NCBI GenBank assembly: GCA_963709405.1
Contig: CAVPXM010000054.1
Span: forward strand, 1-64,000
Direction: 5' to 3'
From: an uncultured Nitrososphaerales archaeon
GTDB taxonomy: Archaea; Thermoproteota; Nitrososphaeria; Nitrososphaerales; Nitrososphaeraceae
Length of the DNA stretch: 64,000 nucleotides
Below the pieces are notes generated by a model. The model made no database searches and was not told the origin of the DNA. It saw nothing but the letters and a program-made list of their open reading frames with translations. Shown here piece after piece: positions 42,866 to 62,042 of the stretch. The position numbers and the translations under genes were made by a program. Position 1 is the stretch's first letter, and each line of letters begins with the position of its first letter.

Positions 42866-44057
42866 CTGCCGTTACTAAATATCTAGAAATAGTATATCAA
42901 TTTATTAACATCTATAAGCATGTGATCCATTGCTTGAGTACTGTCAATATCATAGTTAATTGTTGTACTTACACAGATAGGTTACATTTTTGATTACCTA
43001 CATGGGTTACACTTTGCTGCTTGTTCTTGTACGTACGGTGGATGTAATTAATCTTTAGAAACATCTCTGATGGAGTAAGGCCATTTATTCCTCCATGTTC
43101 TCTGGTTTCGTTATATGCTTTAACAAAGATATCATATCTTATTTTACCATCATCTGTGTTTGGTATATCCTCAACTGCTAAAAACTCATTCTTTACTATC
43201 TTGTTATATGCTTCTACCTTTCGTTGTAACTGTGGATAGGAATTGGGTATTTGCTTATCCTTTATCTGATTGTGTACAAGAAAACGTCTAAATATTTTGG
43301 ATGTAAACTGTTTTCGATTATCATGCATTATCTTTCTGGGCTTGCCATTAATGATTATCCATTCTTCCAGTACGTTAATAACATCTACTGACCTCTTTCT
43401 TTCAGACCACTTGCTAGCTACTTTTCTTGAACAATCGTCCAGACAGCTAATGATGTAATTCCTTTGACTAGAATTACTCAGATAGAAAGGTCCAAGGATA
43501 TCCAACTGCGCACCTGTACCATATCGTTAGGTCGTTTCATTGCAAACCTTTTGTATATTTTATTATTCCTTGTCTTACAGTTTAGAACATTTAGACCATG
43601 TCTCTTTAGTATCTTGTATAAAGTTCGAGTGCTTAATGAGATTCCAACAACCTTTCTTAATCTAAACTTGATCCTATTACATCCAAATCTCTTGGTTAAT
43701 CGTAGATCAAGTATTGTCTCCTGTATTTCAGATGTTATCTTCTTGTACTTGATATTATGAGGTCTTCTTGAGTTATCGGATAGACCTTCTGTTCCTTTAT
43801 GTTCATATCTCTTATTCCATTTGTAATACGTCTTCCTGGAGACACTATACTTTTTACAAATATTGCTTATGGTGTCACCAGTCCATTCTTTTTCGTGGAT
43901 TAGGTTGAATCTAGTTATGATTTCTATATGTATACACTTCCTGACAGCAGAAGTGTAACCCATGTCTGTAATCCATGTGAACTATTTTAAGGATTTCTGT
44001 TTTTCTTAATCTTAGTATAGTTCACCTCTGTTTACATACACATCCAGTAGTTTTTTC

Positions 44058-44177
44058 GGATAGTAATCCATTCGAGGCTCACCCTCACTACCGTCTTTAT
44101 CCATTTGTTAAGGAGATGCCACAGTTAGCTAATCGAGGCTTCACCCTCATACAGACAGTCGTGGTTAACACCTTAAC
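44058..44177 (-). ncRNA. Putative bridge/seek RNA of the IS110 element
   Basis: Two stem-loops with 11-nt internal loops around a shared UGAGG...CCUCG hairpin; loop segments match the insertion target and one element end. Confidence 0.8.
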
Positions 44178-44209
44178 TATAATGATAATAATAATTGAAT
44201 TAATCATCA

Positions 44210-45268
44210 TCATCCTAACCTCTCATACATTCGTCTTTCTTTCATAATCCAATAAGCAACCTTCAGCAATTTGGCTGCAGCAGCTACAGCAGCTTTAGAA
44301 TTACCTTTCTTTTTTGCTATTCTATAATAGAACTGAGCTATGTTACTATTCTTTTCAGTGCGAATATGTGCGTGAACACATTCTAGCATTATCCATCGTA
44401 AGTATTTGCTACCTGCCTTTGTTATGCTGCTTCCATAATGTGTTACTCCACCAGAACTATGTGTTGATGGTACTAGACCTGCGTACGAACACAAGTGGTA
44501 CGAATCAGGAAACCTATTGATATCTCCAATTTCACTAACGATTAACAAAGCTGAATAATATCCAATACCTGGAATCGTCATCAGTAATTTAGCGATCTCA
44601 TCTTCTTTAGCAAGCAGTAGTATCCTCTTAGATACAGTATTAACTTCATCATTCAACGATTTAATAACACGAAGACAACCATTAATTCTATAATCATCAT
44701 ATCCTTCTAGTTTATCCATATTCCTTCTGGTAAATGTACTGGTACGATCGACATCTGAGGCCTCTATACCCTTCATAAGCGTAATGCTATGTACCTTATT
44801 CTTTAGTTTAGTTCTCATTCTTACAAGTGCGGATCTATGCCTAACAATGTCTCGTAGTTCCATTATTCTTTTGTTTGGAACATAGCATTCAGCTATGTAT
44901 CCTCCTCTCAGTAGATCAGCTAATTTAACCGCATCAAGTTTGTCGGTCTTTATTTTGGCCGAGGCAATAGCTCTTGTCTTGGTTGGATTGGATAATCGTA
45001 TATCTAGGTGTCTCTTTCTCAAGCATTCATAAATGTTGTACCACATACCAGACGATTCCATTACGACCTTAGCGTTATTGCCTGGACTGAGACTATCGAA
45101 GAATTCATTCACTTTTATCAGGTTATTGTCTACTCTAGAATTATCCAGTACCTTTCCTTTTTCGTCAAGAACGGCTACCTGTAGATAGTTCTTGTGAACA
45201 TCCATTCCCACAAACATACTCTTCTTACATACGCTACCGTCTGCTTTAGACTTACATAATTCGTTCAC
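44210..45268 (-). CDS. IS110-family DEDD recombinase, intact
   Basis: VGMDVH, VMES, KTDKLDA, IPGIG, SYAGLVP...SSGG. Confidence 0.95.
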   Translation of the reverse strand: MNELCKSKADGSVCKKSMFVGMDVHKNYLQVAVLDEKGKVLDNSRVDNNLIKVNEFFDSLSPGNNAKVVMESSGMWYNIYECLRKRHLDIRLSNPTKTRAIASAKIKTDKLDAVKLADLLRGGYIAECYVPNKRIMELRDIVRHRSALVRMRTKLKNKVHSITLMKGIEASDVDRTSTFTRRNMDKLEGYDDYRINGCLRVIKSLNDEVNTVSKRILLLAKEDEIAKLLMTIPGIGYYSALLIVSEIGDINRFPDSYHLCSYAGLVPSTHSSGGVTHYGSSITKAGSKYLRWIMLECVHAHIRTEKNSNIAQFYYRIAKKKGNSKAAVAAAAKLLKVAYWIMKERRMYERLG

Positions 45269-45493
45269 ATATAGTTAGCTATAATGTCACCTATGTTAGG
45301 AAGTACAACAGCTAACCAAACCAATTTATCGTGTGCTATCCACAAGTACTATCATTGTATTTAGATTTCAATCTAAATCTAATAACAGCTTGCCACGACA
45401 AATAACTCGATACTAATTAACGTATTCTATATATTCTATATAGTAGTATATAGTGCTATTAGATATATATAGGTAGTTTGTTGATACTTAGAT

Positions 45494-45958
45494 ATGATAG
45501 AATCATCTACAGAAAAAATATTTCCAAAAGATAATAACGTAAAGATAGAGCAAACAAGGAGCCAAAATGATGATAAGATGGTTCAAAAGTCACTTACAAA
45601 TGAAACTGGACTTACGATTATTCAATTATCCCGACAGATTAAGGATCTTGACAAGAAAAACACAAGAATAGAAGAACTACTTTCATCTATCAAGAAAGAC
45701 ATTAAGAATGTAGTACTGGCCATAAAGGACAGTCAACAACTCGCATCAGACGGAGCAACTAGAATGAAGGAATTTCACGATCAGATAGCTCAATTACAAA
45801 TGCAAACACAAAAAATTGAACAGGTTATTAATGACGACTCTGTGTCTAAAAAATCAAAGAAAGTTAAGAAAGATAAGAAAGATAAGAAGCAGAGTAATAA
45901 GGAAAAGGATAAGAAAAGCAAGAAGAAAGCAAAAAGTATGAAGAAAAAACAGAAGTAA
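45494..45958 (+). CDS. Coiled-coil protein with Lys-rich C-terminal tail
   Basis: Heptad-like middle region; tail SKKSKKVKKDKKDKKQSNKEKDKKSKKKAKSMKKKQK. Confidence 0.75.
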   Translation: MIESSTEKIFPKDNNVKIEQTRSQNDDKMVQKSLTNETGLTIIQLSRQIKDLDKKNTRIEELLSSIKKDIKNVVLAIKDSQQLASDGATRMKEFHDQIAQLQMQTQKIEQVINDDSVSKKSKKVKKDKKDKKQSNKEKDKKSKKKAKSMKKKQK

Positions 45959-59322: not shown

Positions 59323-60360
59323 TGTTGTACTTACACAGATAGGTTACATTTTTGATTACCTACATGGGTTACACTTTGCTGCTTGTTATTGTACATACTG
59401 TGGATGTAATTAATTCTTTGTAGAAACATCTCTGATGGAGTAAGACCATTAATCCCTCCGTGTTCTCTAGTTTCGTTGTAGGCTTTTACAAAGATATCAT
59501 ATCTTAGTTTTCCATCATTTATGTTTGGTATATCTTCTATTGCTAGGAACTCATTCTTCACTATCTTGTTATATGCTTCCACTTTACCCTGAAGCTGCGG
59601 ATAGCGATTTGGTATTCGTTTATCCTTTATCTGATTGTGTACAAGGAAATGTCTGAATATGTTAGATGTAAACTGCTTTCCACTATCATGCATTACTCTA
59701 TCAGGTTTGCCGTTGATCACTATCCAATCCTCTAATACATTAAGAACATCTACTGACCTCTTCCTTTCAGACCATCTGCTAGCTACTTTTCTTGAACAGT
59801 CGTCTAGGCAGCTAATGATGTAATTCCTTTGACTAGAATTACTCAGATAGAAAGGGCCAAGGATATCCATCTGTACCATCTCATTTGGATGCTTCATGAC
59901 AAACCGTTTGTAAGTTCTTGTTTTGGCCTTACACTTGAGGATATTAAGCCCATGTCTCTTTAGTATCTTGTATATGGTTCTGGTGCTTAATGAGATTCCA
60001 ATAACCTTTCTCAATCTAAACTTGATCCTGCTGTACATCCAAACCTTTTGGTTAATCGTAGATCAAGTATTGTCTCCTGTATTTCAGATGTTATCTTCTT
60101 GTACTTGATATTATGAGGTCTTCTTGAGTTATCGGATAGACCTTCTATCCCTTTCTGTTTGTATCTGTTATTCCACTTGTAGTAAGTCTTTCTGGATACA
60201 CCGTATCTTTTACAAATATTAGATACTGTATCACCAGTCCATTCTTTCTCATGTGTTAGATTAAACCTTGTATTGATTTCTATATGGATTCACTTCCTGA
60301 CAGCAGAAGTGTAACCCATCTGTGTAAGCTATAATGTCACCTATGTTAGGAAGTACAACA
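59323..60360 (-). mobile_element. IS481-family element, full length, transposase frameshifted
   Basis: TGTTGTACTT...AAGTACAACA ends; 6-bp TSD ATTACT at 59317-59322 and 60361-60366. Confidence 0.92.
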
Positions 60361-60978
60361 ATTACTACATAAATAAATTCGAACGCTTTATAGTTCTTCG
60401 TTACATAGGAAAAAGATACGTGCGTGGTGGCACGGATGGTGAATTACCGATTCTCCAGTGGTAGGGCTCCCTCGTCCTGGTACTGGAATCTGTGTATAAA
60501 TCTTCCAGAAAAAAGTTAAGCTCTCTACGTTCACGATCTTCTTTAAAAACAGAATCTCATTTTCCCATCTACAGATGCTTCTAAATGACGTACATTCAAA
60601 GATTTGACGGGCTAGGTTTCAAAACTGGAATGAAATTATGTGAATGGGCTATTCATTTAACGATTTGTAATTGCTTGTCATGATAACCTATCCACAAACT
60701 AGGCATGTGTCCACACACTCCCACCAACCATAAAATTGGCTTTTGGACATACTTGTCAATCAGCGACAAATACTGCTTTGTTGCATAATTCAGAAAGATC
60801 GTCATCTTGCAATGCTTTTAGTACTTCTCAGGAATAGGCCAAATGCGGATTACTCCTTTTTAGCTGAATGTTTCAAAGTTAGTTGACTAATATCGGATTC
60901 GTGCATCTATGTAAAAGTCCCTCCATGGCTAGCATATCCTACTATTATCTAATGCTGCCTAGACCAGTCTTTATTATC

Positions 60979-62042
60979 TTAGTGTTGGATCCTCTTAAGT
61001 TTTGTTTCGTATAGGCCAATCTTTCTTTCATTGTATAGTTTCTTGTATGTTAGCATATGCCACATTATAGTGCATATCTTATTTGCAACATGTGTTATTG
61101 CAATGTGACGCCCATGTCTTTTGGCCAGCCTTAGATAGAATTTCCTTAATCTACTGTCAGTTCTAGATGCAGTATTGGCTGCTTCAATTAATATCCATCT
61201 TACCTTTTTATTACCATCTTTCATCCTTCCCATATACAATGGGTTTCCAGATTGATGTACTGATGGACATAATCCAGCCCATGATACAAGTTTTTGAGGT
61301 GAACTAAATCTGTTAATATCGCCAATTTCAGATGATATCATCATTGCAGAGAAATAATTTATTCCTGTCATACTCATCAATATTTTAACTGATTCATTAT
61401 TTGATGCGTCTATCCTTTCTTTGATTCAATATTTTTGATCTCTGTAGTAAGAAATTCAATCTGCTCAATGTACTCATGCAGCAAAATCTGGTCATTGCCA
61501 GTTACTTTTAGATCCCTTAGCCATTGTAATCCCTTTATTCCAAATATCTTGGAATAATTAAAGTTCATATCATCATATTTATCAAGTAATGAATGTGTTC
61601 TATTAATTACTCTGGTTCTATCCTGTACCAAATTTGTTCTTAGCCTGAGTAATGACCTATCTCCTCTAGTCTCTCTGTCTGCAATGTAACATTCAGCTAC
61701 AACAAGATCTGATCTAAGTAGATGTGCAAGTGTTCTAGCATCAAGTTTATCGGTCTTTATTATTCTTGCCTCAGCAATGGCCTTAGTTTTCAAAGGATTA
61801 GCCAGTTTAACATCAATATTATGTTTCTCAAATGCCTGGTATGTCTTTAGCCAAAGGTTACCTGTAGATTCACAGACTGCTTTAGACATACCATCACCAT
61901 GCTTCCTCTTAATGGATGAAGCAAATGATTCAGCTTGTTCCAACGTATTATTGTAATTGGTTTCTTTGATTATGGAACCATTCGAATCCATTATACAAAC
62001 TACACAATTCCGTTTTCCAATATCTACTCCTATATAGTTCAG
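60979..62042 (-). pseudogene. IS110 DEDD recombinase, frameshifted near 61415
   Basis: YIGVDIG, VCES, KTDKLDA; SWAGLCP...QSG in the second frame. Confidence 0.9.

Follow-up and report, generated by a model that had tools for sequence, protein, structure and literature searches.

RNA-guided IS110/IS1111 recombinases, which are in development as programmable genome-writing tools, have to our knowledge so far been studied in bacteria. Two homologous systems, IS621 and IS1111, have been shown by experiment to be RNA-guided (PMC11208160, PMC11187229). Published accounts of IS621 describe a recombinase with catalytic D/E/D/D and Ser residues (Hiraizumi et al. 2024, PMC11208158), a bridge RNA with target and donor loops whose strands pair with opposite DNA strands around a two-base core (PMC11208160, PMC11208158), and handshake guides whose pairing after exchange drives insertion (PMC11208158). 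Accounts of the IS1111 elements ISEc11, ISPa11 and ISKpn4 describe seekRNAs of 82-96 nt in which the part that matches the top strand precedes, on the 5′ side, the part that matches the bottom strand (Siddiquee et al. 2024, PMC11187229), and the IS1111 group as a whole is described by a left end that is short, a long non-coding region 3′ of the gene, and inverted repeats of 7-17 bp in subterminal position. Here we analyze an IS1111-type element, and the guide RNA that it appears to encode, in a 64,000-nucleotide stretch of DNA from an uncultured Nitrososphaerales archaeon (GenBank assembly GCA_963709405.1, contig CAVPXM010000054.1, positions 1 to 64,000 of the forward strand; hereafter, the window).

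Archaeal members of the family are on record: Vaysset et al. 2024 counted 662 archaeal IS110 recombinases (bioRxiv 10.1101/2024.06.21.599552), the archaeal element ISHvo10 has been placed in a published tree, and mining studies are described as using both bacterial and archaeal data (Durrant 2024; bioRxiv 10.64898/2026.10.21.760802). In the literature on archaeal IS110, IS1111 and seekRNA we found no paper describing an archaeal bridge RNA structure or the family reported here, and large mining studies may hold it in their supplements.

The window element resembles the IS1111 seekRNA elements, as described, in its non-coding region downstream of the transposase gene, its subterminal inverted repeats, the GL-P----SG motif and a protein length of ~335 aa. 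As in seekRNAs, its top-strand match lies 5′ of its bottom-strand match and the two matches overlap in the target. It differs from the seekRNA elements in its archaeal host and, with seekRNAs compared by description, in an RNA of two near-identical modules plus an outer stem (~120 versus 82-96 nt). With IS621 as published it shares the D, E, D, D and Ser residues and two internal loops, one for the target and a putative one for the donor, each with two strands that would pair with different DNA strands on the two sides of a two-base core. In both systems, the bases that follow the core guide on its 3′ side fit the non-cognate DNA once strands have been exchanged. Several features set the window element apart from IS621: the RNA is placed 3′ of the gene instead of at the left end and is ~120 instead of 177 nt long, its strand matches come in the reverse order, the core is TA (TT in this particular target) instead of CT, the second core base appears handshake-like, and protein similarity is low (E 1.7e-14). 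The original prediction for this locus had called the RNA compact at ~120 nt, a description that holds beside the IS621 RNA and fails beside seekRNAs.

We consider it very probable that the 3′ end of this IS1111-type element encodes a bispecific two-module guide RNA of ~120 nt. The anatomy and boundaries of the element, the RNA structure as seen through covariation, the covariation of guides with flanks, and the kept catalytic residues support this reading directly. By homology to IS621 and the IS1111 seekRNA systems, the RNA would be made, would be bound by the recombinase, and would direct serine-linked strand exchange at the two-base core.

An intact recombinase and a clean insertion

The host is a soil ammonia-oxidising archaeon. 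Its small-subunit ribosomal RNA scored 1505.9 bits against the archaeal model, and the nearest relatives of the recombinase are records titled Nitrososphaeraceae or Nitrososphaerales, which together confirm the archaeal origin given in the original prediction. The open reading frame (ORF) of the recombinase is intact and matches the Pfam domains DEDD_Tnp_IS110, which is RuvC-like (6.8e-27), and Transposase_20 (6.1e-24), as well as NCBIfam NF033542, 'IS110 family RNA-guided transposase' (245.6 bits, cut-off 140). It aligns with the IS621 transposase 8wt6_A (E 1.7e-14) with D, E, D, D and Ser identical; residues D13, E62, D104, D107 and S243 of that chain have D, E, D, D and S as their counterparts in the query (D11, E60, D102, D105 and S241 in native IS621 numbering by our own count, an offset of 2 from the 8wt6_A chain). 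The catalytic Ser sits within GLVPSTHSSG, an IS1111-type GL-P----SG motif. These scores and conserved residues bear out the intact DEDD recombinase that had been proposed.

The borders of the element can be read from uninterrupted copies of its flanks. At ~38 other places in the same genome the flanks are continuous, with the sequence left of 45277 running straight into that from 43971 down, and contigs of the public runs X3 and X5 join 43970 to 45277; because these contigs skip exactly 1306 bases, the element is 1306 bp long. The insertion is clean, with at most 1-2 bases shared with the target and no long target duplication. The left end is short, with 58 nt from the left core copy to the ATG, and the non-coding right end is long, with 238 nt from the stop codon to the right end. 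The layout is IS1111-type and not IS110/IS621-type, because the RNA lies 3′ of the gene, the 7-bp inverted repeats are subterminal, and the top-strand match lies 5′ of the bottom-strand match; the proposed assignment to the IS110 family stands, with the layout refined in this way. Judged by the features that sequence can test, of which the donor loop was found in part, the element is best classed as an archaeal IS1111-type member of the known RNA-guided IS110 family. It entered the 5′ leader of a multicopy IS481-family element, its target, 8 nt upstream of that element's ATG at 43963.

A predicted two-module RNA conserved by compensatory change

On the minus strand 3′ of the gene, loop 1 (44164-44119) reads CCAC / GACUGUCUGUA / UGAGG-GUGAAG-CCUCG / AUUAGCUAACU / GUGG and loop 2 (44102-44058) reads GGAU / AAAGACGGUAG / UGAGG-GUGAG-CCUCG / AAUGGAUUACU / AUCC. 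The RNA is built from an outer stem (GUUAAGG/CCUUAAC), module 1 (CCAC/GUGG), a short linker and module 2 (GGAU/AUCC), and the two modules are near-identical, each with a stem, an 11+11-nt internal loop and a UGAGG/CCUCG hairpin. The same arrangement lies directly 3′ of the recombinase in relatives from other genomes, whose proteins are 43-88% identical. Every string and coordinate quoted in the original prediction was found at its minus-strand place, and on the plus strand tgtctgta lies at 43963-43970, taatccat at 43969-43976 and tagcta at 45276-45281.

We built a covariance model, R1, from the RNAs of ten relatives. Within the host genome it found the window copy and a sole other copy, degraded, on contig C69. 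A class-wide search matched 18 of 151 genomes, including one complete genome with at least 24 matches and another with 19. Full-length matches were also found beside more distant recombinases in Nitrosopumilaceae (79 bits), in another Nitrososphaeria lineage (~53 bits), in a Thermoplasmata record (42 bits) and, as a weak match, in an Archaeoglobi record (26.7 bits).

Covariation supports all five helices. In a 17-sequence alignment, 96.5% of cells pair in a standard way, versus 33-46% when the partners are slid, and both sides change in 15 of 25 pairs, versus 6.0 +/- 1.7 in shuffles (a count reached in 0/500). In a second set of 28 distinct new sequences, 96.9% of cells are paired, with 115 double-change cells versus 32.5 +/- 5.4. 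RNAalifold recovered the five helices from the 17-sequence alignment, and the single-sequence centroid fold also contains them. The U-G closing pair of both hairpins is kept in 15 of 17 and 27 of 28 sequences, and because these pairs would be A-C on the opposite strand, the RNA strand is that of the recombinase. The outer stem overlaps the stop codon in several relatives, which suggests that the RNA may be processed from the 3′ end of the messenger RNA. The minus-strand structured RNA that had been predicted 3′ of the gene is thus upheld by compensatory changes in 17 and 28 sequences, as is its near-symmetry, with two near-identical internal-loop modules conserved through such changes; the folding check proposed with it recovered the five helices by both routes.

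The stretch that separates the stop codon from the RNA (44178-44214, minus strand) holds a hairpin rich in A/U, GAUGAUGAUGAUUAAUUCAAUUAUUAUUAUCAUUAU. It is present only in the closest relatives and varies in length; a contig of run X1 carries a 6-nt insertion within it.

Loop 1 covaries with the target flanks

For each 11-nt loop strand of the window RNA, we compared the longest exact match to the two 30-nt junctions, in either sense, with that of 20000 shuffles of the strand. The last 8 nt of the loop 1 5′ strand, UGUCUGUA, complement TACAGACA from the second core base onward, an 8-nt match reached in 122 of the 20000 shuffles. The loop 1 3′ strand is same-sense to TAGC-TA-ACT at the left junction, a 9-nt match reached in 113. 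In loop 1, the top-strand match lies 5′ of the bottom-strand match. The UAGCUA string that had been called complementary to the right flank is present, but it is palindromic, so for UAGCUA alone complementary and identical readings cannot be distinguished.

The guides change with their flanks. Over about ten guide families, the 5′ strand matches its cognate right flank at 6.47 of 9 positions, versus 3.95 +/- 1.21 for non-cognate flanks, and the 3′ strand matches its cognate left flank at 4.14 of 6, versus 1.74 +/- 1.13. Compensatory examples are UGUCUGUA with TACAGACA in the window element and UCUGUGUA with TACACAGA in L033, where GUGUAC also stands alongside TTGTAC. The guides of L036, L039 and L163 fit GAGCC-TA-TCCCAAAA, and uninterrupted sites in two other genomes, GAGCC-TA-TCCCAAAA and GTTGTAC-TT-ACACAGA, confirm the junctions; in all, three guide families have such uninterrupted sites. 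In another genome, relative L032 has an 88% identical protein and a retuned 5′ guide. Covariation of guides with the flanks of other copies was the original prediction's own test, and for loop 1 cognate matches far exceeded non-cognate ones.

The core and the handshake bases

Written in the direction of the recombinase gene, the uninterrupted site is ...GGTGACATTATAGC-TT-ACAGACATGGG..., and the occupied site shows ...ATTATAGC-TA-ACTATATGTGAA... at the left junction and ...TTCACATGGA-TT-ACAGACATGG... at the right one. Among right junctions, the core is TA in 11 of 15, TT in 3 (the window element and its two closest relatives) and CA in 1, and the uninterrupted targets of the TT elements themselves carry TT. 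The proposed TA core of the target did not hold: the actual target has TT between the guide matches, and TA, the family's usual core, is found here at the left junction only. Likewise, the target reconstructed earlier, tgtctgTAgcta, falls one base short of the uninterrupted site, tgtctgTAAgcta on the plus strand, and the 12-mer proposed as target has one genome occurrence, in an unrelated sequence on C4. We ruled out a core TA at 43969-43970, since uninterrupted sites hold one extra T, and a core at positions 2-3 or 3-4 after the right end, since every element has TAAC at its left junction and it is the right junction that differs among them. Empty sites in genome G045, which carry a single TA that stands on both sides once they are occupied, also counter a core at 2-3 or 3-4.

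The handshake dinucleotide of the loop 1 3′ strand equals left-end positions 3-4 in 12 of 14 elements: the strand always has UA, followed mostly by AC, and by AU where the left end starts AT (AU with AT in L063 and L110). Among the distant RNAs (UA-AA and UA-GA types), left junctions could be located for only 3 of 15 loci (10-mer search, at most 2 mismatches), too few to be informative. Of the 1-3 nt that had been noted to match across the junctions, with the caveat that they could be scaffold, those of the loop 1 3′ strand are a true handshake, because they covary with the left end (AC versus AU); those of the loop 2 3′ strand fit the flank in only 6 of 15 elements.

Each 3′ strand is one base mismatched to its own substrate and fully complementary to a product junction (left flank-TA-left end, or right end-TT-right flank), because loop 1 carries UA plus left-end bases and loop 2 carries UU plus right-flank bases. 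The same logic has been shown for the handshake guides of IS621. In the window element the second core base itself appears to behave like a handshake base. If each strand keeps the core with its 5′ part, as in IS621, the two ends of the element could differ in their core copy, with TA at the left and TT at the right.

Loop 2 and the element ends

The loop 2 3′ strand is same-sense to ATGGA-TT-AC at the right junction and matches the right end over 9-10 nt; its 9-nt match to the junctions was reached in 92 of 20000 shuffles. Across relatives, cognate right ends score 7.33 of 8 and non-cognate ones 6.21 of 8, a gap that is small because right ends are conserved. Within this narrow range, the strand follows its end. 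A G-to-A change is shared by both in L033 and in type C elements of genome G197 (CATAGA with AAUAGA), CATGGA or CATGGG is accompanied by AAUGGA or AAUGGG elsewhere so that GGG versus GGA tracks the right end, and UU versus UA in the strand tracks TT versus TA at the right junction. The match to the element end TAatccat that had been proposed for this strand is borne out, following right-end variants.

The loop 2 5′ strand, which had been left unexplained, shows weak and discontiguous pairing with the left end only. When the strand is aligned from its 3′ end to the left end TAAC-N-ATAT, 10 of 13 elements show pairing at positions 3-5, and the single base that varies in AGAC-N-GUAG meets the variable left-end position 5 through four pair types (G-T, A-T, U-A and G-C). 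Strands of the L065 family form a run of six to seven pairs with the left end, AUGGUU being complementary to AACCAT. We hold with moderate confidence that this strand is a weak, discontiguous fourth guide. Two other partners were rejected: its match to a left-end box (45242-45234) is same-sense and has the wrong polarity for a guide, and pairing with a downstream CUACUG is not conserved in relatives.

The left-end box is set back ~36 nt from the end, with ~17 nt separating it from the ATG, and occupies the same place in L033, L036, L062 and L065. It varies together with the loop in several families, for example as AGACAGTAG, AGACGGTAA and AGATGGTTG; the cognate mean of 7.3 in the box/loop comparison is an underestimate, with L036 and L039 mis-anchored. 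The features of the locus are collected in Table 1.

Table 1 Features of the IS1111-type element, its guide RNA and its target in the window.
Feature	Positions	Strand	Remarks
Whole IS1111-type element	43972-45277	minus	1306 bp, left-junction core copy included; ~38 uninterrupted flank copies in the same genome
Recombinase gene	44210-45217	minus	335 aa from ATG, MFVGMDVHK; in-frame GTG upstream at 45268
Bridge/seek RNA, five helices	44058-44177	minus	Covariance model R1, 131.5 bits
RNA helix P1	44177-44171 with 44113-44107	minus	Outer stem
RNA helix P2	44164-44161 with 44122-44119	minus	
RNA helix P3	44149-44145 with 44138-44134	minus	
RNA helix P4	44102-44099 with 44061-44058	minus	
RNA helix P5	44087-44083 with 44077-44073	minus	
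Loop 1 (target-binding) 5′ strand GACUGUCUGUA	44150-44160	minus	Last 8 nt complementary to right flank 43970-43963, minus-read TACAGACA
Loop 1 3′ strand AUUAGCUAACU	44123-44133	minus	UAGC same-sense to left flank; UA, core position; AC(U), first bases of left end
Loop 2 (donor-binding) 5′ strand AAAGACGGUAG	44088-44098	minus	Weak, discontiguous pairing with left-end positions 3-5 (45275-45273)
Loop 2 3′ strand AAUGGAUUACU	44062-44072	minus	AUGGA same-sense to right end; UU, core position; AC, first bases of right flank
Left-junction core copy TA	45276-45277	minus	TA at left junction in 14/14
Right-junction core copy TT	43970-43971	minus	Same as TT of uninterrupted target
Left subterminal inverted repeat ATGTGAA	45264-45270	minus	Few bases inside end; kept in relatives
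Right subterminal inverted repeat TTCACAT	43975-43981	minus	Few bases inside end; kept in relatives
Left-end box AGACGGTAG	45234-45242	minus	Same-sense copy of last 9 nt of loop 2 5′ strand
A/T-rich box TTAAAATA	43983-43990	minus	Just inside right end, ~23 nt upstream of ATG 43963
Left part of interrupted target	45278-45310	minus	5′ end of IS481-family element, from TGTTGTAC
Right part of interrupted IS481-family element	42969-43969	minus	Leader, ATG at 43963; two ORFs

The target element and other copies

The two ORFs downstream of the insertion match the two halves of the IS481 transposase model. They encode 161 and 178 aa, and this split of the transposase indicates a frameshift or break in the interrupted copy. 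The IS481-family element is highly multicopy, occurring again in the window (60208-60360, minus strand) and at ~38 places in the genome. A short-leader variant, in which TGTTGTAC is followed directly by TTACA, occurs 10 times and is the target of L033-type relatives, fragments of which lie on C44 and C60. The true 13-mer target, TAGCTTACAGACA, is unoccupied at 22 exact sites in the host genome, and a second, truncated copy of the window element sits at the same site on C42.

The second RNA copy in the host genome (C69:12456-12576; L142) is a degraded orphan of 64.6 bits that lacks a recombinase gene. The guides of its loop 1 spell out ATCCCAAAA, which relatives in three other genera use as their target, and this broken copy carries the perfect complement of the L036/L039/L163 site GAGCC-TA-TCCCAAAA. 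The window also holds a second IS110-family gene from another subfamily (~60900-62036, minus strand), ~37-40% identical and in two pieces, 62036-61587 and 61407-61033; no R1 match was found with it, and TTTTACATAGATG in its downstream region is similar to the 3′ regions of L042 and L050, two distant relatives.

An A/T-rich, TTTAA-type box precedes TTCACAT in every relative examined. It is a candidate outward-facing archaeal TATA box, from which a junction promoter for the recombinase would form only in the circle; in the inserted state it might drive the interrupted IS481-family gene.

Genome G197, a complete 2.0-Mb genome from the same order (loci L191-L210), has at least 24 RNA copies and three element types. 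Eleven identical type A RNAs belong to elements at AACTA-TA-TGTGAAT, with guides AAACUA-UA-AC and the complement of ATGTGAA. This site falls within the left end of another, second element type from the same family, and intact second-type copies are the empty sites. Type A is inserted in the left end of type B or type C, giving tandem pairs ~1325 bp apart. Read from these guides and sites, one RNA-guided element in G197 appears to be programmed against another.

Partridge and Hall are said to have described in 2003 that IS4321 and IS5075 target the inverted repeats of the Tn21 family. The window element is like them in being a site-specific IS1111-family insertion sequence whose natural target is the terminal region of another mobile element. 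Unlike theirs, its host element is an archaeal IS481-family insertion sequence, and in G197 the host belongs to the same RNA-guided family.

Weighing the readings

A number of observations weigh against a bispecific guide RNA in a working element. Three concern the RNA itself: its single-sequence fold is not unusually stable (z -1.22; a 186-nt fold reaches z -2.98 but takes in the unrelated A/U hairpin after the stop codon); an Rfam 15 scan of 43800-45500 at E up to 10 gave no family and three sub-cut-off noise matches, in a release that may hold no bridge RNA model; and alignments A3 and A4 were fitted to the model, which biases them toward structure, although the slid controls and RNAalifold argue that the pairing signal is real. 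The sole contig that bears on expression spans 44101-44327, is 233 nt long and 90-95% alike, and comes from an oligo-dT soil RNA library; RNA libraries can contain DNA, and the contigs show neither strand nor ends. The contigs X1, X2 and X3 are Logan contigs of oligo-dT soil libraries holding 7-13% of the sampled words, so that uncovered parts are uninformative. Among the guides, the loop 1 5′ strand shows no match in L063 and L110, fits in L062/L085 only after a one-base shift, and matches at only 5-6 of 9 positions in the L065 family, where the register is shifted by a base or two. The loop 2 5′ strand has only a 4-nt match to the window junctions (15705 of 20000 shuffles, not above chance) and pairs with only 3-6 left-end bases across relatives. 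As for the loop 2 handshake bases, no more than 6 of 15 elements, the window element included, have both of them in agreement with the right flank. Finally, the activity of the element is doubtful: a single copy is intact, several are broken, and 22 exact sites stand unoccupied.

This last point feeds the strongest rival, in which the RNA and its guide design are real and the copy is an immobile relic whose flank match records one past insertion. We regard this as possible, though we lean against it. The 4.8-Mb assembly holds one intact copy and truncated or degraded ones on C5, C30, C37, C42, C44, C60, C65, C69 and C93, the 22 exact sites still stand empty, and the RNA on C69 has broken stems (64.6 versus 131.5 bits). 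Yet the recombinase ORF is open with every catalytic position conserved, the five helices and both ends are intact, L032 in another genome shows that a near relative (88% identical protein) has retuned its 5′ guide, and site-specific insertion sequences are normally low in copy number. It is unlikely, in our judgment, that only loop 1 guides and that loop 2 is a duplicated scaffold, with the protein recognising the ends through the subterminal inverted repeats. The narrow gap between cognate and non-cognate scores of the loop 2 3′ strand (7.33 versus 6.21 of 8, the ends being conserved) and the insignificant window match of the 5′ strand would fit such an arrangement, as would the donor-binding bases of IS1111 RNAs, which Durrant et al. 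describe as less clear (PMC11208160); what separates the two readings is that loop 2 changes with the ends, through the CATAGA/AAUAGA pairs of L033 and G197 type C, the CATGGA or CATGGG pairs with AAUGGA or AAUGGG, the UU or UA that tracks TT or TA at the right junction, the four pair types at left-end position 5 with AGAC-N-GUAG, and the AUGGUU/AACCAT complementarity of the L065 family.

That there is no RNA at all, the hairpin modules being DNA-level features such as a terminator or protein-binding repeats and the flank matches arising by chance, we find barely credible. Such a view can draw on the RNA-library record, which comes down to one 90-95% alike contig, on the fold z of only -1.22 and on the lack of an Rfam match; it has to set aside the strand-specific G-U pairs and compensatory changes in all five helices, the matches of three of the four loop strands to the junctions at ~0.5% each in shuffles, the guide-flank covariation over about ten guide families, and the homologous systems that are experimentally RNA-guided (PMC11208160, PMC11187229). 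We retain the bispecific two-module guide RNA as our preferred reading.

Under the preferred reading, the module 1 5′ strand would pair with the recombinase-sense strand of the right flank, from the second core base, and the module 1 3′ strand with the opposite strand of the left flank. In module 2, the 3′ strand would pair with the right end, and the 5′ strand would make weak pairs with the left end. Both 3′ strands would finish in bases that match the partner DNA arriving after strand exchange, in a handshake.

A kinship of IS110 recombinases with the archaeal box C/D small RNA (sRNA)/Nop5 system has been put forward as a hypothesis by Vaysset et al. 2024 (bioRxiv 10.1101/2024.06.21.599552). 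As box C/D sRNAs are described, the resemblance to the window RNA is one of topology only: a closing stem, two facing guide strands of ~11-12 nt, and a distal hairpin. The protein partner also belongs to the family proposed as Nop5's relative. Unlike in a box C/D sRNA, the UGAGG/CCUCG hairpin has simple Watson-Crick pairing apart from the U-G pair that closes it, and the guides read DNA, not RNA; inspection of the RNA alignments by eye, without a formal test, showed no K-turn or C/D sequence signatures.

A more far-reaching reading joins four proposals: that this is an internally duplicated two-module bridge RNA family native to archaea, spread across Nitrososphaeria and weaker in Thermoplasmata and Archaeoglobi; that the second core base serves the handshake, being a mismatch until strands are exchanged and a match from then on; that the left-end sense copy of the donor-loop 5′ strand is a regulatory mimic or a relic of an RNA moved between ends; and that the module represents a kind of ancestor for box C/D guide RNAs. 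Taken jointly, these are highly doubtful.

Implications

For programmable recombinases, the locus may offer pairing rules that can be read from nature, with 22 exact empty sites to set against the occupied one within a single genome, and related genomes extend this to 19 to at least 24 copies, some apparently aimed at the ends of other elements. The compact two-module RNA of ~120 nt would be a scaffold from mesophilic archaea, and a core base that gains its match only through strand exchange would be a design idea. For the family, the structure proposed here would give an RNA to an archaeal branch for which we found no earlier one in the literature, a branch proposed as kin of the box C/D guide-RNA machinery. 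For the ammonia-oxidising archaea themselves, it points to one mobile element that may be policing or exploiting another.

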